64,000 nt of DNA from Candidatus Oleimmundimicrobium sp. (GTDB lineage: Bacteria > Actinomycetota > Aquicultoria > UBA3085 > Oleimmundimicrobiaceae). Below the pieces are notes generated by a model. That model saw nothing but the letters and a program-made list of their open reading frames with translations. It was not told the origin of the DNA and made no database searches. Of this stretch, positions 7,019-53,645 are shown one piece after another. The DNA lies in assembly GCF_030651595.1 (NCBI RefSeq), contig NZ_JAUSCH010000004.1, positions 9,380 through 73,379 of the forward strand. The letters run 5' to 3'. How positions within the stretch are numbered: position 1 is the first letter of the stretch; each line of letters starts with the position of its first letter. The position numbers were made by a program, and so were the translations under genes.

Positions 7019-7151
7019 AAAAAAACGGTTGATAGTAAAATCAAAAAAAACCATAATATCTACCATTTTTCTCATTTGATGATTGTTTGTCTGTTATTTC
7101 TATCGAATTTGTAAAATTTCTTTTCCTGTTTTGTTATTGTAGAATTGAAAC

Positions 7152-8049
7152 ATGATGATTGTAGAAATATTAAAAAATACATGGGTCTTCACTTTAATGG
7201 CTTTACCTTGGCTGGCAGTTGGGTATTTATTTGCCGGCTTGCTTAAAGTTTTAATTCCGGTCGGTTTTTTAGAAAAACATATTGGCAGTGGCTTTAAGTC
7301 ATTGATTTACGCTACTTTAATTGGCATCCCTTTGCCTTTATGTTCTTGTGGCGTGGATTCCCATGGCAATGACTTTAAGAAGGCGTGGGGCGAGCTTGGG
7401 AGCGACTATCTCCTTTTTAATTGCAACTCCTGTCACTACTGTAACCACGTTATTTTTGCTTTATGCTTTCTTTGGTTGTAAATTCGTGATTTTAATGGTG
7501 TTTACGGGGTTTTTTATAGCCATTCTTACAGGTCTTTTTGTAGATATTTTCGTAGATTCATCGAATGTGGAAGTTAAGAAGAGAATTAAATGCTCTCATT
7601 GTGATGTTGTCTGTGAACATAAGCGCTATTTTGGGTTTACCGAGAAGCTCAAAGAAGTTTTTAGGTACGGGTTTTTGGAGATAGGAAGAGATACATTAGG
7701 TTGGATTTTTCTTGGTTTGCTGGGTGCGGGGATAATTGCTACCCTTGCCCCTAAAGAAATAATCGGTCATTATTTAGGGACGGGATTTTTGCCGCTTATT
7801 TTAATGGTTATTATTGGCGGTCCCATGTATATTTGTTCTACTGGTAGCATTCCTTTTGTTGCGGCTCTTGTTTCAAAAGGTTTAACCGTAGGTAGTGCCG
7901 TTGTTTTTCTGATAGTCGGCCCCGCAACCAACTTGTCTACTTTTTTTGTTTTAGCCCGCAAGCTGGGCAGAAAAACGGCAGTTATCTATATTGTTTCAAT
8001 AATAATGTTTTCTTTAATCTTGGGGTATTTAATTCAATTAATAGTTTAA
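7152..8049 (+). pseudogene. DUF318/ArsP-like permease (COG0701) disrupted by a +1 frameshift
   Basis: ORFs 7152..7481 and 7321..8049 are two frames of one gene. Family motif reads PLCSCGV then DSHGN in frame 1, and ...VAWIPMAMTLRRRGASLGATISFLIATP in frame 2. Removing one G near 7355-7356 restores CSCGVIPMAM... Confidence 0.6.
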
Positions 8050-21857: not shown

Positions 21858-22337
21858 ATGTTGAAAAATGTGGAAAGACCAAAATTTATCGTTAATCAGA
21901 TGTGCGGCCGTCTTGCTAAATGGTTGCGTTTAATAGGTTATGATGCAGTTTATTTTAGTGATATCGCGGGTCGAGAATTGATAAATATTGCCAAAAAGGA
22001 AAGTCGGATTATCTTAACTCGAGATACGGAATTAATAAAAAGAAGCATCATTGCAAAAGGTATCGTGAAAGCATTAATGGTAAATTCCGACAATTTGGAT
22101 GTTCAGCTTGCTGAATTGATTAAAAGTCTTAAATTAAACTGTTCCCAGAGTCTGAAAAGGTGTATTGAGTGTAATGTTGAGCTTAAACCAATTCCTAAGT
22201 CTGAAGTAAAAAGCGAAGTTCCTCTTCATGTTTATAAAACACAAAATAATTTCAGTGTTTGTCCATTGTGCGGGAGGTATTACTGGAAAGGGACACATTG
22301 GAAACATATTCAGAACAAACTTAAAAATATTTGTTAA
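21858..22337 (+). CDS. Mut7-C/DUF82 PIN-like RNase domain protein with C-terminal zinc ribbon
   Basis: N-terminus FIVNQMCGRLAKWLRLIGYD typical of Mut7-C (COG1656); C-terminal CxxC...CxxC. Confidence 0.7.
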   Translation: MLKNVERPKFIVNQMCGRLAKWLRLIGYDAVYFSDIAGRELINIAKKESRIILTRDTELIKRSIIAKGIVKALMVNSDNLDVQLAELIKSLKLNCSQSLKRCIECNVELKPIPKSEVKSEVPLHVYKTQNNFSVCPLCGRYYWKGTHWKHIQNKLKNIC

Positions 22338-22786
22338 AGAAAATGATGTAATTTAGAGAATATATTCAATACAAAAATATTAACACTCATGATGACAATC
22401 CCGCTTATCATCAGCCAAGAAGAGATGCTGGTCGTATTTTTCTTTTCAAAAAACGATAACCAGCCGATTGTCAGCAAGGTAACAAAATAATAAAACCACA
22501 AGATGACAGAACCTATTTGCTTAACATCCCAACTCCAATAAGCTCCCCACAAATTTTTAGCTTGTATTAGCCCTATGATAAAAGAGGTTGTAAAAAAAAG
22601 AAAGCCAATAATTAAACAGACAAGATTAAGTTTGTACTGTTTTTTTAAAAAAAAATCCTTTGAAGTGGAGTCTGGACTTGTCTTTTTTAAAATTAAATAC
22701 AAACCGCTTCCAAGGCCAGCTATTAATAGACTAATTTGACTCAGTGTCGCAAGGATGTAATGTGCAATGCATTTGTCTAGTGTCAT
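22334..22786 (-). CDS. half-size CcsA/ResC-like cytochrome c assembly (WWD-domain heme-handling) membrane protein
   Basis: Contains the WGAYWSWD tryptophan-rich WWD motif between TM helices, with His near both termini (IAHYIL, LHHFL); only 150 aa vs ~300 for CcsA. Confidence 0.55.
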   Translation of the reverse strand: MTLDKCIAHYILATLSQISLLIAGLGSGLYLILKKTSPDSTSKDFFLKKQYKLNLVCLIIGFLFFTTSFIIGLIQAKNLWGAYWSWDVKQIGSVILWFYYFVTLLTIGWLSFFEKKNTTSISSWLMISGIVIMSVNIFVLNIFSKLHHFL

Positions 22787-22866
22787 AAAGCACCATTTCT
22801 TTTTAACTTAATAAAATATTTTATAAGAAAAAATTATTAAGTTATTATAAGATATTGTTAAGGAGG

Positions 22867-23277
22867 ATGGAAGAATTGTCTGATAATTTAAAAGCTTTTG
22901 AGAAAAAAGAAGAGGTTGTTTTAAGGTTTATAAAGGCAGATGAAGTTAAGTTTGCTCATCCCAGCGAACGTGTTTGCGCAAGTATTCTTGATTTTTATCA
23001 CATTCGGTGGCTTTATGAGCCAAAAACATTCCCAATAGAATGGGACAAGAAGGGCAATGTTGTTCAGAGTTTTACTCCGGATTTTTATCTTTCTGATCTT
23101 AACTTATATATTGAACTTACAACGATGAATCAAAAATTAGTAACTAAAAAAAACCGAAAAGTAAGAAGATTAAAAGAGTTATATCCCGATGTTAATATAA
23201 AGATTTTTTATCAGAAAGATTTCAAAAATCTGTTGATAAAATATGGGTTTCATGGCAGCGAGAAAAACAAAAATTAA
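22867..23277 (+). CDS. DUF559/Vsr-like endonuclease-fold (PD-(D/E)xK) small protein
   Basis: FTPDFYLSDLNLYIELT resembles the DUF559 core (YIxDFYC..L.IELDG), followed by a basic KNRKVRRLKELYPDVNIKIFYQKD tail. ATG 22867 directly after AAGGAGG (ORF track TTG 22855). Confidence 0.45.
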   Translation: MEELSDNLKAFEKKEEVVLRFIKADEVKFAHPSERVCASILDFYHIRWLYEPKTFPIEWDKKGNVVQSFTPDFYLSDLNLYIELTTMNQKLVTKKNRKVRRLKELYPDVNIKIFYQKDFKNLLIKYGFHGSEKNKN

Positions 23278-38327: not shown

Positions 38328-38786
38328 ATGGATATAATGACTTTAATTGATAAAATTGAAGATATTATTACCACAGCACGAAGGCTTCCTTTAGGTAACT
38401 CAATAATGATAAATGAGCAGAAGCTATTTGATATCATAGACGAGATGCGTGCGTCTATACCCGATGAGCTTAAACAAGCAAGGTGGATTGTCAAAGAGAG
38501 ACAAGAGATGTTAGCTGAAGCTGATAAAGAAGCAAACGCAATCATTGAAGAAGCTCGTAAAAATGCTGAACAGGTTGCATCAGAGCAAGAAATAGTAAAG
38601 ATGGCCGAAGCCAAGGCCAATGAAATTATTTCAGATGCAAAAGAAAAGGAAAGAGAAATTCGTTTAGGTGCAGAAGATTATGCTGACGAGATGCTTGCAA
38701 ATCTTGAAGTTAACTTGGGAAAACTTCTTGCGGCAGTTCAAAGAGGTAGAGATAGGTTGCAAGGAAAGATACAGCCTAAATCTTAA
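38328..38786 (+). CDS. hypothetical coiled-coil protein (ATP-synthase-b/FliH-like helical repeats)
   Basis: 152-aa highly charged alpha-helical ORF with GGAGG RBS; conserved position between coaD and yceD; family not recognised. Confidence 0.45.
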   Translation: MDIMTLIDKIEDIITTARRLPLGNSIMINEQKLFDIIDEMRASIPDELKQARWIVKERQEMLAEADKEANAIIEEARKNAEQVASEQEIVKMAEAKANEIISDAKEKEREIRLGAEDYADEMLANLEVNLGKLLAAVQRGRDRLQGKIQPKS

Positions 38787-41650: not shown

Positions 41651-42808
41651 GTGGATTATTTTCTAACAGAAGAACAACAAATGATAAAGGAACTAGCAAA
41701 AAAAATAGCTGACGAAAAAGTGATTCCGGTAAGAGCCAAATTAGATGAAGAAGAGGAATTTCCTTGGGCTATTATGAAAGATTTAGCTCAGGCAGACCTA
41801 TTTGGTCTTTATATGCCGGAAGAATACGGAGGAATTGGTTTCGGTTGCTTTGAAACGGTTCTCGCGGTTGAAGAGTTGAGTAAAGCATGTTGTGGAGTGG
41901 CAGTAAGTTATGCGGCAAGTGTTCTCGGAGCGTATCCTATCCTTTTATTTGGCTCAGAAGACCAGAAGAAAAAGTATCTACCGGATTTAGCATCTGGTAA
42001 GAAGCTTGGAGCTTTTGGTTTAACGGAAGCCAATGCGGGAAGCGATGCTTCGGCAATTCAAACAAAAGCCGATAAAGATGGAGATTTTTACGTCCTCAAT
42101 GGAACTAAACAATGGATAACCAATGGTGGCGAAGCGGAAACTTACACGATAATCGCCATGACAAATAAAAACAAAGGAAGCCGAGGAGCCACTGCTTTTA
42201 TTGTTGAAAAAGGAACGCCTGGCTTTTCGTTTGGGAAAAAAGAGAAAAAACTTGGAATACGATGCTCGGCAACAAGAGAGCTGGTTTTTGAAAATTGTCG
42301 AATACCCAAGGAAAATATTTTAGGAAAAGAAGGAATGGGTTTTATAGTTGCCATGAGAACCTTAGATATGACCCGTCCGGGGATTGGAGCTCAAGGCGTT
42401 GGTGTTGCTCAAGGAGCCTTCGATGCCGCTCTTGATTATTCGCGTCAAAGGATGCAGTTTGGTAAGCCGATATCTTCATTTCAAGTAATCCAGCATATGT
42501 TTGCAGATATGGCTATTCAAATTGAAGCTGCGCGCGCGCTGGTTTACGCGACTGCAAAAATGATTGATGGTGGAGCTAAGAATTTTTCGAAAGAATCCGC
42601 CATGGCTAAAACCTTTGCTTCTGATATGGCGATGGAAGTTACCATTAACGCTGTTCAAATAATGGGTGGTTATGGTTATATGCGTGAGTACCCGGTTGAA
42701 AAAATGATGAGGGACGCAAAAATTATTCAAATTTACGAGGGGACAAATCAAGTTCAGAGGAATGTAATTGCCCGGCAATTAATTAAAGAAAATATGGGTA
42801 AAAAATAG
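41651..42808 (+). CDS. acyl-CoA dehydrogenase (butyryl-CoA dehydrogenase-like)
   Basis: ACAD N-, middle- and C-domain pattern (…GLTEANAGSDA…, …YEGTNQVQ…); 385 aa. Confidence 0.85.
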   Translation: MDYFLTEEQQMIKELAKKIADEKVIPVRAKLDEEEEFPWAIMKDLAQADLFGLYMPEEYGGIGFGCFETVLAVEELSKACCGVAVSYAASVLGAYPILLFGSEDQKKKYLPDLASGKKLGAFGLTEANAGSDASAIQTKADKDGDFYVLNGTKQWITNGGEAETYTIIAMTNKNKGSRGATAFIVEKGTPGFSFGKKEKKLGIRCSATRELVFENCRIPKENILGKEGMGFIVAMRTLDMTRPGIGAQGVGVAQGAFDAALDYSRQRMQFGKPISSFQVIQHMFADMAIQIEAARALVYATAKMIDGGAKNFSKESAMAKTFASDMAMEVTINAVQIMGGYGYMREYPVEKMMRDAKIIQIYEGTNQVQRNVIARQLIKENMGKK

Positions 42809-42825
42809 ATATTTGGAGGACGGTT

Positions 42826-43611
42826 TTGAACATTATCGTTTGTATAAAACAGGTTCCTGATACAACCAAAGTAAAGATAGACCCAGAAACCAATACCTTA
42901 GTAAGAGAAGGGGTAAAGAGCATAATTAACCCGTTTGATATGTATGCGTTGGAAGAAGCAATTAGAACAAAGGAGAAAGTTGGCGGAAATATTAGCGTGT
43001 TAACCATGGGTCCTCCCCAGGCCGCAGAGGCATTAAGGGAGGCAATTGCAATGGGTGTAGACGATGTTTATTTGTTATCGGATAGAGCATTTGCCGGGGC
43101 CGATACCCTCGCAACTTCTTATACTTTATCAAAAGGCATAGAAAAGATAGAGCAGTTTGACCTCATAATTTGCGGAAAACAGACAATAGATGGAGACACG
43201 GGACAGGTGGGCCCCGAGGTTGCTCAGAAATTAGGAATACCGGTTGTCACATATGTGAGCAAAATTGAAAATATAAAAAATGGTCAAATCAAACTTAAGC
43301 GAATGGTAGAAGACGGTTACGAAGTAATTGAGGCAGAAACACCTTTGTTGATAACGGTTGTAAAAGAGATAAATGAACCCAGGATGCCATCTCTTCGGGG
43401 GACAATGAAGGCAAAGAAAGCTGAGATACCAACATGGAACGCAAATGATATTGGGGCAGAAAGTGAGAGAGCGGGTCTTTCCGGCTCTCCAACCCAAGTC
43501 GTTCGAATTTTTGCTCCAGAGATTTCCAAAAAGTGCGAGATTTTAGAGGGAGAACCAACGGAAATTGCTGAAAAGCTTATTAAAAAGTTAAAAAAGGGAA
43601 AGGTTATCTAA
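42826..43611 (+). CDS. etfB: electron transfer flavoprotein beta subunit
   Basis: N-terminus MNIIVCIKQVPDT typical of EtfB/FixA. Confidence 0.85.
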   Translation: MNIIVCIKQVPDTTKVKIDPETNTLVREGVKSIINPFDMYALEEAIRTKEKVGGNISVLTMGPPQAAEALREAIAMGVDDVYLLSDRAFAGADTLATSYTLSKGIEKIEQFDLIICGKQTIDGDTGQVGPEVAQKLGIPVVTYVSKIENIKNGQIKLKRMVEDGYEVIEAETPLLITVVKEINEPRMPSLRGTMKAKKAEIPTWNANDIGAESERAGLSGSPTQVVRIFAPEISKKCEILEGEPTEIAEKLIKKLKKGKVI

Positions 43612-43618
43612 GTAGTTT

Positions 43619-44842
43619 TTGGGCCAAAACCTTATTTACCGGGAGGAATTTTTGAGTATTAAAGTTGATTTGAGCAAATGCAAGGGTTGTAAACTCTGCG
43701 CAAAAGCTTGTATGTATGGGGCAATTGATATTGTTGAGAAGAAAGCATATATAAACAACAACTGCACCCTGTGTGGCGCGTGTGTCTCGGCTTGTAAATA
43801 TGGAGCCATTTCTATCTCAAAGAAAAAGAAAACAGCTTTCAATGAAGGCGATTATGAGGGAGTTTGGGTTTTTGCTGAGCAGAAGCAAGGCAAATTAGCC
43901 GGAGTAGCTTTTGAGCTTCTTGGTGAAGGGAGAAAGTTGGCCGATGAGTTGGGAGTTAAGCTTTCTGCCGTCTTATTGGGAGAAAAAATTAGCGATTTAG
44001 CCAATGAACTTATATTTTATGGAGCAGATAGGATTTATATTGTTGATAACCCAATCTTGAAAGATCGTCTCGATGAACCTTATGCAAATACTCTTGTTCA
44101 ACTAATTCACGAGCATAAACCGGAAATTTTTTTAGCCGGGGCAACTTCTTTTGGGCGTTCATTAATTCCCAGAGTTGCGGCAACTTTGGAAACAGGGCTT
44201 ACTGCCGACTGCACAAGTCTTGCTATTGATAAAAAAAATAAATTTTTATTACAGACTCGCCCGGCATTTGGCGGAAATATCATGGCTACCATAATTTGCC
44301 CGAACAAGAGACCGCAAATGGCTACGGTTAGACCCAAAGTGATGAAGTGTGCTCAAAGAGACGACACGAGAAGTGGTGAAATAATTGAGGAGACAATATT
44401 GAAACCCACTTCTTTAAGGGTAAAGTTGTTGGACTTTATGGAGGAGCTAAATAATAAGGTAAACTTAGAAGAAGCAGAGATTGTTGTCGCGGGTGGAAGG
44501 GGTCTGGGTAAAGCCGAGAATTTTAAGCTTATTCACGAGATGGCCTCGATTTTAGGGGCAGCTGTGGGTGCTTCAAGAGCGGCAGTTGATGCTGAATGGA
44601 TACCCTATTCTCATCAGGTTGGACAAACCGGCAAGACTGTTTCTCCAAAACTATATATTGCTTGTGGAATTTCCGGAGCTATTCAACATCTTACCGGTAT
44701 GCAAACTGCCGATAATATTGTCGCCATAAATAAAGACCCGGATGCTCCAATTTTTAATGTTGCCAACTATGGTATAGTTGGTGACTTATTTGAAATAATT
44801 CCGGCCATCACAGCTAAACTAAAAGAGGTTAGCGGGGGTTAA
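43619..44842 (+). CDS. etfA: electron transfer flavoprotein alpha subunit with N-terminal 2x[4Fe-4S] ferredoxin domain
   Basis: Two CxxCxxCxxxC ferredoxin motifs followed by an EtfA/FixB fold; a TTG at 43652 after GGGAGG may be the real start. Confidence 0.85.
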   Translation: MGQNLIYREEFLSIKVDLSKCKGCKLCAKACMYGAIDIVEKKAYINNNCTLCGACVSACKYGAISISKKKKTAFNEGDYEGVWVFAEQKQGKLAGVAFELLGEGRKLADELGVKLSAVLLGEKISDLANELIFYGADRIYIVDNPILKDRLDEPYANTLVQLIHEHKPEIFLAGATSFGRSLIPRVAATLETGLTADCTSLAIDKKNKFLLQTRPAFGGNIMATIICPNKRPQMATVRPKVMKCAQRDDTRSGEIIEETILKPTSLRVKLLDFMEELNNKVNLEEAEIVVAGGRGLGKAENFKLIHEMASILGAAVGASRAAVDAEWIPYSHQVGQTGKTVSPKLYIACGISGAIQHLTGMQTADNIVAINKDPDAPIFNVANYGIVGDLFEIIPAITAKLKEVSGG

Positions 44843-50099: not shown

Positions 50100-53000
50100 T
50101 TGTATCTTAAATCTCTTTCCATCAGGGGTTTTAAATCATTTGCCGATAAAACAACATTAAAATTTGAACCAGGAATTACAGTTATTGTTGGGCCAAATGG
50201 TAGCGGAAAAAGTAATATAAGTGATGCTATTTTATGGGTTTTAGGTGAGCAAAGCCCAAGGTCTTTACGTGGCGCTGCAATGGAAGATGTAATATTTACC
50301 GGGAGCTCGACACGTCCGCTACTTGGTATTGCAGAAGTTTCATTAACTCTTGATAACACAGATAAGCAGCTTCCAATTGAGTTTTCCGAGGTAACAATAA
50401 CACGCAGAATGTCACGTTCAGGAGAGAGTGATTATTTTATTAATGGTTCTATCTGCAGACTTCTCGATGTTCAAGATTTATTGTCCGATTCAGGTTTGGG
50501 AAGACAAACTTACTGTATTGTAAGCCAGGGGAAGATTGAAGAAATATTAAACAGTAAACCTGAGGAAAAAAGACTTTTGATAGAAGAGGTTGCAGGTGTT
50601 TTAAAACATAGAAAAAGAAAAGAAAGAGCTATACGAAAGCTTCAGGCGATGGACCAAAATCTTTTAAGAATTCGCGACGTGCTTCGAGAAGTTGAGCGGC
50701 AACTTCGGCCCCTTCAAAAACAAGCCTCTGAAGCAGAAAAGTTCTTAAAATTATCACACCAGCTAAAAGACCTGAATATTGCTTTAGCTGCTACAGAGCT
50801 TAAAAAATTTCAAGACGATTGGAAAAGCGTAGCCAATGAAGATAATTGTTTAAACAACGAACTGACTGCTTTACGGAAAAGATTAAAGGATAAAAAAGAA
50901 GAAATTAATAAAATTCAGTTAGATCTTGAAGAAAAAGGCGACTACGTAGGCGATATTGGCGAATACCGACACAGGCTAAAAGGGATTATTGAAAGACTTA
51001 ATACGGGGCTCTTGCTTTTGGAAGAGAAGGGTAAGCATCTTATTGAAAAAATGAGTGATATTAGAGGGCAAATTTACCAGGACGAGAGGCACAAAAACAA
51101 CAAGTCTAAAGAGTTGGATGAAGTTATCTCTAGAATAAGCGAGATTAAGAAAGATATTGATGACGTTAGTGGTAAAATTATTCAAATAAAAAAAAGCAAT
51201 GAGATATGGCAAAAAAATACAGAACAAACAGATAAAAAATTAATTGATTTTAAAAAGAAAAACGGTGAGAAAAATAAGCAGTTAGAAAGCAATGAGAAAG
51301 AAATCAAGGTTTTATCGGATTCACTTAACGCAAGTAAAATGGAAGACAAGTTTGTCATAGAAAAAGTAGCGGTTTTAGAAAACGAAAAGAACACTTTATT
51401 TAAGAGTTTGGAAAAAAAGGAAAAAGAAAAAGTTTCAATTGAATCTAAACTAACCGAATTAAATAATTTTCTTCATGAAACCGAAAACAGGGCTTCAAAT
51501 TGTTTAGTTAATTTAAATGACCTTGAATCTCAGCTTAAAGAAAGAGAAGGGGATATTTACAAGATAAAAACAAAAATTTCCGCCTTAGAGGAAGTTGAAA
51601 AAAAATTAATTGGCTACCCGGAAAGTGTAACCTGGCTAATTCTTGAAAAAGAGACTTCAGGTTTAAACGGAATAGTGGGGGACCTGCTTGATATCGATAA
51701 AAGATACGAAAAAGCAATTGAGTCAGCGTTAAGTGAAAACATGTATGGTGTAATTGCAAATGATATTAGCGTAGCCAAGGATGTTATTAATGTTTTAAAT
51801 CAGTCCGAGCAAGATATCGTTTCCATAATCCCTTTAAAAGGTTTTAAACGAGCCCCTGTGTCGCTGACTGGAGATTTTAAAGCAATTTCAGCGATGGATG
51901 TTGTTAAGTACCCAAAAAAGATAGAATCTGCGGTTCAAGCAATTTTAGGAAATGTGTTTATAGTTGACAATTTGGATATTGCAATAGATGCAGTCGAAAA
52001 ATACTCTAACAACTCTCTGTTTGTTACTTTGTCTGGTGAAGTTGTTTCCCCTAAAGGAATAATAAAAGGTGGGAATCCACCTCGCACAACCCCACTTTAC
52101 CGCAAAAGGATTTTAGCAGAATTAAAAAAAGACGAAAAAACTTTAGCAAACAGCTTAACGAAGATGAAGAAGAAAATACAACAGTCTCAATTAGACCTTG
52201 AATTGGCTGTTAATGAGAAAGGCAATCTCATAGAAGAGGTGCGGCTAGTAAAAGACAAAAGGCAAAATATGGTTAGCGATTTGTTGTATTTAAAAGAACT
52301 AATTACGAAGAAGACAAAAGAGATGGAAGATCTTTTATTTCAAAATGAGCAAGCGAAAAAGAAGATTTCTTTTGATATGAAAAAAATTGAGGTTTTGAAG
52401 GACAAAAATAAGTTGCTAAAGAAAGAAATTGCTGTTATTGAGTCCTCTATTAAAAAAGCAGAGGCCGATAAACAAAAGTACTTTGTTGAGAAAAATAAGC
52501 TTAGCAATGAACATGCAAGATTTAGAACTGAGAAAGAATCATTTTTAGAGCAGTTAACTTTTATTGAAAAACAATGCAAGGTTATTGTAGACGATATCAA
52601 TGAATTTAATCAAACTCTTGAATCAAAGAATAAAACCGTTAAAATTATGGAGAATCTAAGGGAGCGGATTCAACCTCTTCACGAACTGTTTGTAACTTTA
52701 TTTAACGAGGCTAAAAAATGGGATAAAAAACTTGAATCTCTTGTGCTTGACGAAAAAATGGATACTAAAAAATTACGTGAAAAATACAAGTTATTACAAA
52801 CTGAAGTTATTCCATTAAGCAATGAAATTGATATTACTCAAAACAGAATTAAAGAAATTGAGGTTGAATGTGCTGAACTTAAACTCAAAATTACCGGATC
52901 AACCGATAAGATTGTTAATGAATATAATATCTCGCTGAAAAAAGCCTTAAAAGCTTGCCGGGAGAATTTAAATAAAAAAGAATGTAAAGAAAAAATAGAA

Positions 53001-53645
53001 AAAATTGAAGCAAAACTGGCAAGTTTGGGACCGACAAACCAAATTGCCGTTAGAGAATACTCAGCGCTTGAGGATAGGCATAAGTTCTTAAAAGACCAAA
53101 TTTCTGACTTAAAAAAAAGTGGAAAAGCACTTGAAAGAGTAGTTAAAATAATTGAACAAAAAATGAAAGACAGATTTTTAGAAACCTTTAATGAGGTGAA
53201 TGACAGCTTTCAAAATATTTTTTCATATCTTTTTTCGGGAGGAAGAGCCAGGCTTTTATTGACTGATGAAGAAAATCATCTAACAACGGGTGTCGAAATT
53301 GAAGTGCATCCTATGGGCAAACATCTTCAAAGGATGACTCTTTTATCCGGAGGGGAAAAATCGCTAGTTGCATTAACGCTTCTATTCGCGATTTATCACA
53401 CGAAACCAAGTCCATTTTATCTGCTTGATGAAGTGGAGCCTGCTTTGGATGATGTCAATTTACAGCGTTTTATCGCTCTTCTTGATAAAGAGAAGAGCGA
53501 TACGCAATTTTTAATAATTACTCATCAAAGAAGAACCATGGAGGTAGCGGATTGTCTTTATGGTGTTACCATGCAGGCAGATGGTGTTTCAAAACTTGTT
53601 TCTCAAAAAATGAATGATTTTGAAAGAGAAAACAAAGTTAGTTAA
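50100..53645 (+). CDS. smc: chromosome segregation protein SMC
   Basis: N-terminal Walker A GPNGSGKSN, long coiled coils with hinge, C-terminal LSGGEKSL signature and Walker B; 1181 aa. Confidence 0.95.
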   Translation: MYLKSLSIRGFKSFADKTTLKFEPGITVIVGPNGSGKSNISDAILWVLGEQSPRSLRGAAMEDVIFTGSSTRPLLGIAEVSLTLDNTDKQLPIEFSEVTITRRMSRSGESDYFINGSICRLLDVQDLLSDSGLGRQTYCIVSQGKIEEILNSKPEEKRLLIEEVAGVLKHRKRKERAIRKLQAMDQNLLRIRDVLREVERQLRPLQKQASEAEKFLKLSHQLKDLNIALAATELKKFQDDWKSVANEDNCLNNELTALRKRLKDKKEEINKIQLDLEEKGDYVGDIGEYRHRLKGIIERLNTGLLLLEEKGKHLIEKMSDIRGQIYQDERHKNNKSKELDEVISRISEIKKDIDDVSGKIIQIKKSNEIWQKNTEQTDKKLIDFKKKNGEKNKQLESNEKEIKVLSDSLNASKMEDKFVIEKVAVLENEKNTLFKSLEKKEKEKVSIESKLTELNNFLHETENRASNCLVNLNDLESQLKEREGDIYKIKTKISALEEVEKKLIGYPESVTWLILEKETSGLNGIVGDLLDIDKRYEKAIESALSENMYGVIANDISVAKDVINVLNQSEQDIVSIIPLKGFKRAPVSLTGDFKAISAMDVVKYPKKIESAVQAILGNVFIVDNLDIAIDAVEKYSNNSLFVTLSGEVVSPKGIIKGGNPPRTTPLYRKRILAELKKDEKTLANSLTKMKKKIQQSQLDLELAVNEKGNLIEEVRLVKDKRQNMVSDLLYLKELITKKTKEMEDLLFQNEQAKKKISFDMKKIEVLKDKNKLLKKEIAVIESSIKKAEADKQKYFVEKNKLSNEHARFRTEKESFLEQLTFIEKQCKVIVDDINEFNQTLESKNKTVKIMENLRERIQPLHELFVTLFNEAKKWDKKLESLVLDEKMDTKKLREKYKLLQTEVIPLSNEIDITQNRIKEIEVECAELKLKITGSTDKIVNEYNISLKKALKACRENLNKKECKEKIEKIEAKLASLGPTNQIAVREYSALEDRHKFLKDQISDLKKSGKALERVVKIIEQKMKDRFLETFNEVNDSFQNIFSYLFSGGRARLLLTDEENHLTTGVEIEVHPMGKHLQRMTLLSGGEKSLVALTLLFAIYHTKPSPFYLLDEVEPALDDVNLQRFIALLDKEKSDTQFLIITHQRRTMEVADCLYGVTMQADGVSKLVSQKMNDFERENKVS

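Follow-up and report, generated by a model that had tools for sequence, protein, structure and literature searches.

We examined a 64,000-nucleotide stretch of DNA from Candidatus Oleimmundimicrobium sp., placed in the class Ca. Aquicultoria of the Actinomycetota, a class whose physiology we take to be anaerobic. The whole stretch is referred to below as the window. An open reading frame (ORF) on its minus strand, at 22334-22786, starts with ATG and encodes a membrane protein of 150 amino acids with a tryptophan-rich WWD motif. This WWD gene is isolated on its strand. It is convergent with a Mut7-C gene (21858-22337, plus strand), the two 3' ends overlapping by 4 bp at 22334-22337, and divergent from a gene for a protein of ~130-140 residues (22855-23277, plus strand), which is followed by hpt. 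A preliminary description of this DNA had presented the product as a half-size relative of CcsA with about four transmembrane segments, a perfect WGAYWSWD motif and His residues near both termini, belonging to the WWD superfamily of CcsA, CcmC and CcmF, and standing alone in a window with no ResB, CcdA or c-type cytochrome gene. All of these points agreed with our results. The features of the gene are as follows.

22334-22786, minus strand: coding sequence of the 150-residue minimal WWD protein, stop codon included (ORF list; PF01578, 52.9 bits)
22691-22759, minus strand: transmembrane helix 1, ~residues 10-32 (hydropathy; AlphaFold helix 2-36)
22559-22627, minus strand: transmembrane helix 2, ~residues 54-76 (hydropathy; AlphaFold helix 41-80)
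22451-22513, minus strand: transmembrane helix 3, ~residues 92-112 (hydropathy; AlphaFold helix 88-112)
22358-22429, minus strand: transmembrane helix 4, ~residues 120-143 (hydropathy; AlphaFold helix 118-149)
22526-22549, minus strand: WWD motif WGAYWSWD (residues 80-87) of the helix 2-3 loop (read from the sequence)
22760-22762, minus strand: His9, equivalent of P-His1, at the predicted outer end of helix 1 (alignment)
22346-22348, minus strand: His147, equivalent of P-His2, at the extreme C-terminus after helix 4 (alignment)
22520-22522, minus strand: Lys89, conserved basic residue just past the WWD motif (alignment)
22769-22771, minus strand: Cys6, family-specific cysteine at the third position ahead of P-His1 (AlphaFold model, within helix 1)
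22469-22471, minus strand: Thr106, in the column of the CcsA transmembrane histidine TM-His2 (alignment with five CcsA sequences)
22787-22854, no strand: 68-bp divergent intergenic region, presumed promoter region (ORF coordinates)

Structure and key residues of the WWD protein

In Pfam, the WWD protein matched PF01578 (cytochrome c assembly protein) with 52.9 bits (gathering cutoff, 29.9 bits; E=5e-14) over profile positions 73-209 of 212, which correspond to the core between the external histidines P-His1 and P-His2. In NCBIfam, it matched TIGR03144, the equivalog of System II CcsA/ResC that carries the name CcsB in that database, with 48.5 bits (positions 96-246 of 252; cutoff, 187.6), and TIGR01191 (CcmC) with 34.7 bits (cutoff, 186), both matches being sub-threshold. 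The WWD match is genuine and far beyond chance. A spurious motif match and a truncated fragment of a nearby ccsA, the two findings named in advance as fatal to the preliminary description, were not borne out, as the E value and the absence of a missing half from the window indicate. The amino acid sequence is 100% identical to an NCBI entry of Candidatus Oleimmundimicrobium sp. named 'cytochrome c biogenesis protein CcsA'. The protein is, however, an equivalog of neither CcsA nor CcmC, because it has no transmembrane histidine, no ResB neighbour and no equivalent of the N-terminal half of CcsA. The automatic names 'CcsA' and 'ABC-type transport system involved in cytochrome c biogenesis permease subunit' are thus over-specific, since both imply more than the sequence supports.

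The possibility of a truncated or disrupted gene was considered and rejected. Only seven in-frame codons lie between the upstream stop codon and the ATG, and the 68-bp gap to the next gene leaves no room for an N-terminal half. No ORF resembling the N-terminal part of CcsA or ResB was found in the window, and the length of 150 residues is conserved across lineages.

Hydropathy indicated four hydrophobic segments (residues ~7-33, 51-77, 91-113 and 120-146). An AlphaFold2 model based on a 10-sequence alignment displayed four long helices with a mean predicted local distance difference test (pLDDT) score of 85.6 and a predicted template modelling (pTM) score of 0.78, the WWD loop and the C-terminal histidine being modelled with less confidence. 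The model has the core fold of four helices common to the WWD superfamily, and comparison by Foldseek with the structure 7s9z gave a TM-score of 0.77. The distribution of Lys and Arg was then considered under the positive-inside rule. The loops at residues 33-53 and 113-121 carry on average 5.3 and 3.3 of these residues and are assigned to the cytoplasm, whereas the N-terminus, the WWD loop and the C-terminus carry 0.5, 2.0 and 0.7 and are assigned to the outside. This distribution predicts an N-out/C-out topology, and therefore brings both histidines and the WWD loop together on the outer side, the arrangement of the known families.

The protein was aligned with five full-length CcsA sequences, and residue conservation was counted over 33 members of the family of short proteins described below; denominators smaller than 33 give the members covering the position. 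The segment WGAYWSWD-V-K aligns with WGxYWSWDPKE of CcsA and WGTWWVWDAR of CcmC. His9, which aligns with the invariant His of the W-L-x-I-H motif of CcsA and with a His of the CcsBA chain 25vk_A, is kept in 30/30 members. His147, adjoined by His148, is kept in 31/31; it aligns with the His of the terminal G-L-H-S-Y (LHSY) motif of CcsA and, in a profile search of the PDB, with residue 184 (His) of E. coli CcmC. Lys89 occurs in 32/33 members and aligns with the Lys of the CcsA sequence WDPK and with the Arg found two residues past the WWD Asp in CcmC. We take this Arg to be R128, which is among the CcmC residues listed as heme cross-linking (PMC10663686). Cys6 is present in all 28 members covering the position, the corresponding residue being Leu in all five CcsA sequences; any role of Cys6 can only be surmised.

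On the other hand, the transmembrane histidine TM-His2, present as L-H-x-R in 5/5 CcsA sequences, has no equivalent. The column is occupied by Ile, Val, Leu, Ala, Thr or Ser in the short family, and His was not found there in any of the 33 members. The N-terminal ~125 residues of CcsA, comprising about four helices, also lack a counterpart, and the part of CcsA that is retained spans exactly P-His1 to P-His2.

A conserved family of short WWD proteins

We searched for homologues with HMMER, without filters, among 1.84 billion representative sequences. About 20 clusters (50% identity) of proteins of 138-158 residues matched the WWD protein end to end with E values from 1e-26 to 1e-11. Below a gap in score came proteins of ~270 residues that matched in their C-terminal half only. 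The best of these full-length relatives pass the TIGR03144 cutoff, and one of them is encoded directly after a ResB gene. Three further clusters, with proteins of exactly 150 residues, are 61-72% identical to the WWD protein and have all motif residues intact. The ~20 clusters share just 24-36% identity with it, yet keep the length, the four-helix topology, both histidines, Cys6 and Lys89. Gly61, Gly72, Trp97, Tyr100 and Gly129 are also almost invariant. Trp80 is found in 30/33 members, and the position of Asp87 is occupied by Asp in 22, Glu in five and Asn in five.

In a neighbour-joining tree of 113 sequences, constructed from the core region and without bootstrap, 26 short proteins formed an exclusive clade, and the short family branched with CcsA and not with CcmC. 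Profile comparison pointed in the same direction, with a match to bona fide CcsA at 99.35% probability (score 130) and to E. coli YpjD at 65.6% (score 35.6). Against orthologues with 61-64% identity, the ratio of nonsynonymous to synonymous substitution (dN/dS) was ~0.11, with a dN of ~0.2 and a dS that was saturated. The gene is under purifying selection in the clade of the window. It has been known that these proteins belong to the superfamily and are automatically annotated as CcsA. What is new is the minimal, stand-alone architecture devoid of transmembrane histidines as a conserved clade. No description of a four-helix WWD protein was found in the literature that we searched.

Other stand-alone PF01578 proteins were encountered: P0032 (156 residues; L098:915-1385), P0114 (159 residues; L099:788-1267) and P0123 (169 residues). 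Like the WWD protein, they cover PF01578 from ~65 to 210, with P-His1, WWD and P-His2 and without a transmembrane His, and two of them lie in contexts without ResB. They differ in lying outside the actinobacterial clade, in the absence of the conserved Cys and in their genomic contexts, one following a gene with a phosphoribosyltransferase domain and another standing beside RmuC. Their nearest relatives are full-length CcsA proteins, which suggests independent truncations, or miscalled or partial genes. The existence of these unrelated short proteins means that the architecture may have arisen more than once.

Genomic setting and the search for partner genes

In every family member for which the context was obtained, including those with only 25-33% identity to the WWD protein, the gene occupies the same locus. 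At all loci seen it stands alone on the opposite strand, amid housekeeping genes of uncultured, anaerobic Actinomycetota. The product of the divergent gene at 22855-23277 is a soluble protein without a match in Pfam, NCBIfam or PDB sequences, and its gene stands just upstream of hpt in all annotated loci that were seen. This protein without an assigned family is highly conserved, being 65-78% identical across loci at which the more distant WWD proteins are ~26% identical.

This neighbour served as a handle to scan the species genomes of GTDB. Relatives were present in 258 genome stretches, and the best 80 of these 258 loci were examined, all of them metagenome-derived and most labelled Actinomycetota or Coriobacteriia. 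The short WWD gene was found in 10 of the best 80 loci, the carriers including Ca. Oleimmundimicrobium americanum, Ca. Subteraquimicrobium and Ca. Geothermocultor. In loci read without it, a MerR or Mut7-C gene directly abuts the divergent neighbour. The WWD gene is thus an old yet dispensable resident of one locus. A functional coupling to the divergent neighbour was rejected, taking into account that the neighbour is present in 258 genomes and that 70/80 loci have no WWD gene. The literature search returned nothing on Oleimmundimicrobium or on cytochromes of Geothermincolia.

Between 22200 and 23000, no terminator-like site was identified, and the results of a promoter and terminator scan, including the promoter-like matches in 22787-22854, were not above the expectation from shuffled sequences.

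To look for partner genes, most of the large ORFs of the window were scanned against Pfam, and most others received Pfam labels based on synteny; an ORF of 1181 amino acids at 50100-53645 was not scanned. Apart from this ORF, none of those scanned or labelled corresponded to ResB, DsbD/CcdA, heme synthesis or a cytochrome c. CcmD, CcmE and CcmAB were absent from the Pfam-scanned ORFs, and hemA was absent from the window. Searches with phmmer using ResB and N-terminal CcsA halves gave no match in the window. The genes present are housekeeping genes, for lipid and fatty-acid synthesis, thiamine synthesis, Etf with a ferredoxin domain, RecG, FtsY/Ffh and others. A linkage to ffh, as in the case of E. 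coli ypjD, was rejected, the ffh of the window being 32 kb away.

A possible c-type cytochrome was also rejected. The sole notable CxxCH sequence in the window, CNSCH at 7149-7478, belongs to the out-of-frame tail of a frameshifted ArsP permease. This ArsP_1 permease gene (PF03773; 7149-8049, plus strand) is split over two frames, with profile positions 7-68 in 7149-7478 and 68-293 in 7321-8046, and represents either a pseudogene or an assembly error.

Two further regions of the window may be recorded. At 41651-44842 (plus strand), a fatty-acid synthesis cluster includes genes for an acyl-CoA dehydrogenase and an EtfB/EtfA pair, with a FabH-type 3-oxoacyl-ACP synthase III gene on the upstream side and acyltransferase, ketoreductase, NMO-family and beta-ketoacyl synthase genes on the downstream side; this EtfA has an N-terminal 4Fe-4S ferredoxin domain. 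At 38328-38786 (plus strand), between a cytidylyltransferase-like gene and yceD, lies a gene for a 152-residue protein that belongs to no Pfam family and gives weak, sub-threshold matches of the coiled-coil type (DivIVA/Wag31 and ATP synthase b).

Possible roles and relation to known systems

The gene is best explained as a functional minimal member of the WWD superfamily that descended from the System II CcsA/ResC branch. As for its role, we tentatively favour that of a heme holder resembling CcmC, which would act at the outer face of the membrane and pass heme to an acceptor or hold it for one. A pocket on this face would receive heme either by way of the four-helix core or from the outer leaflet, and the heme would be ligated by His9 and His147, with the WWD loop and Lys89 packing against it. 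The protein would then hold the heme or present it to an acceptor not encoded nearby. As no transmembrane histidine and no CcsB/ResB partner were seen, the two-site relay of CcsBA is unlikely. The preliminary description had suggested a minimal heme exporter or handler, or a relic. A handler is the better supported of these, although heme binding, the route of heme and its hand-off are inferred, whereas an exporter in the sense of CcsBA is unlikely, with TM-His absent from all 33 members and ResB not seen near any locus.

Several observations weigh against the heme holder. The WWD motif is perfect in four clusters of the Oleimmundimicrobium clade, and beyond this clade the remainder of the motif is degenerate, with Trp84 in 18/33 members and Trp86 in 10/33. 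This suggests that the canonical packing of WWD against heme is not needed throughout the family. At the corresponding locus of another metagenome-assembled genome (L016, 5381-5824, minus strand), the protein retains both histidines and the Cys with no tryptophan-rich motif. The absence of the gene from 70/80 loci indicates that it is dispensable. In the Pfam-annotated loci of family members, no gene for an acceptor, thiol reduction, a cytochrome c or ResB was linked to it. In addition, HemX and YpjD set a precedent for the PF01578 fold in a role other than cytochrome maturation.

This precedent leads to the reading that we regard as next in standing, and as rather unlikely: a PF01578 paralogue of the HemX/YpjD type that handles no heme for cytochromes and acts as a sensor, a regulator or in another membrane role, its perfect WWD motif being an ancestral leftover. 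HemX of S. aureus is a PF01578 protein in an organism without cytochrome c, where it controls the abundance of glutamyl-tRNA reductase (PMC5801465). The degenerate motif of most family members resembles the state of YpjD, and the WWD gene lies among housekeeping and cell-envelope genes, not respiratory ones. However, neither the eight helices nor the linkage of HemX to gtrR/hemA applies to the WWD gene, and its profile fits CcsA far better than YpjD (99.35% versus 65.6%). Furthermore, the four residues that are the only ones conserved among HemX homologues are all in transmembrane domains (PMC5801465), whereas the short family conserves external histidines and Lys89.

Alternatively, the protein might supply the catalytic core of a System II cytochrome c synthase that is split or dispersed, assembling in the membrane with a ResB/CcsB-like partner and perhaps a separate N-terminal CcsA half encoded elsewhere in the genome; the complex would attach heme to CxxCH proteins. 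That the nearest relatives are true CcsA proteins, one with ResB adjacent, and that the clade of the window has kept the active-site residues of WWD and P-His, are consistent with this possibility. A cytochrome c is part of the Dsr pathway. Since some Aquicultoria encode this pathway in full (PMC10591310), cytochromes c are possible in the class. Nevertheless, we consider a split synthase unlikely. TM-His2 is missing in 33/33 members, and ResB, the N-terminal CcsA half, CcdA and a credible CxxCH protein were found neither in the window nor in the annotated neighbourhoods of other members. Moreover, an active synthase should not tolerate the decay of WWD that is seen in much of the family.

Could the gene be a decaying, functionless remnant of an ancestral actinobacterial ccsA? 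The relic proposed in the preliminary description does find a counterpart in some distant members: the L016 protein is without WWD, and the copy in a further metagenome-assembled genome (L018, 5381-6097, minus strand) has lost WWD and both histidines. The gene is also absent from the same locus in most of the related genomes read (70/80), and it evolves much faster than its neighbour (~26% versus 65-71% identity at the same loci). In the clade of the window, however, the frame, the length and all motif residues are intact at a dN/dS of ~0.11, with the motif perfect in four clusters. The length of 138-158 residues, four helices, both histidines, Cys6 and Lys89 persist over ~20 clusters at 24-36% identity. 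A remnant is thus very unlikely, and for the clade of the window the suggestion of a relic does not stand.

A highly improbable variant, by analogy with the engineered WWD cysteines of CcsBA and CcmC that bind heme covalently (PMC10663686), is a self-contained membrane hemoprotein whose WWD/P-His pocket would hold heme permanently, with Cys6, about one helical turn from P-His1, forming a thioether to a heme vinyl group. Such a self-maturing, four-helix 'mini-cytochrome', if real, would mature without Ccm or Ccs machinery and could serve electron transfer at the outer face, heme storage or heme sensing in strict anaerobes.

We also compared the WWD protein with the systems already described. 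Compared with System II CcsA/ResC (TIGR03144; the CcsA part of H. hepaticus CcsBA, PDB 7s9z), it corresponds to the C-terminal four of about eight helices only, without the ~125 N-terminal residues, TM-His2 and an adjacent ResB/CcsB, and reaches 48.5 bits against the 187.6 of the cutoff. A further difference is the conserved Cys6, a position held by Leu in the five aligned CcsA sequences. TM-His2 is one of two transmembrane histidines that ligate the transmembrane heme on the heme route of CcsBA (PMC10663686). System I CcmC (TIGR01191; PDB 7f02 chain C) has six helices and the WWD protein four, and the latter scores 34.7 bits against the 186 of the cutoff. CcmC works with CcmD, CcmE and CcmAB, none of which was found in the scanned window. 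CcmC is also without transmembrane histidines, CcmCD alone suffices for the delivery of heme to CcmC, and the route by which heme arrives at the external site of CcmC has been left open (PMC10663686).

HemX of Firmicutes and YpjD of E. coli resemble the WWD protein in being PF01578 members apart from cytochrome c genes. YpjD keeps the His aligned with His9 and has lost WWD, as have some members of the short family. These proteins differ in having eight helices and ~263-276 residues, and in their linkage, HemX with gtrR/hemA and YpjD beside ffh. No conserved external His pair has been reported for them, and the profile similarity to YpjD is weak (65.6%).

A 2007 survey by Lee and colleagues reportedly listed 6 to 15 helices for members of the superfamily. 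The CcsA, CcmC and CcmF families share a near-identical core of four transmembrane segments with the WWD domain and P-His1/2 (PMC10663686). Judged from the alignments, the WWD protein corresponds to precisely this P-His1-to-P-His2 core in the form of a free-standing gene. The family consists of the core alone, kept by selection, and may provide a natural minimal model of how the shared core holds heme. If its members bind heme, they would represent the smallest natural system in which to study how the WWD/P-His pocket acquires, orients and releases heme. They would further allow a test of whether the four-helix core alone forms a path for heme, and offer a view of the task of such a protein in anaerobes without linked cytochrome c machinery.

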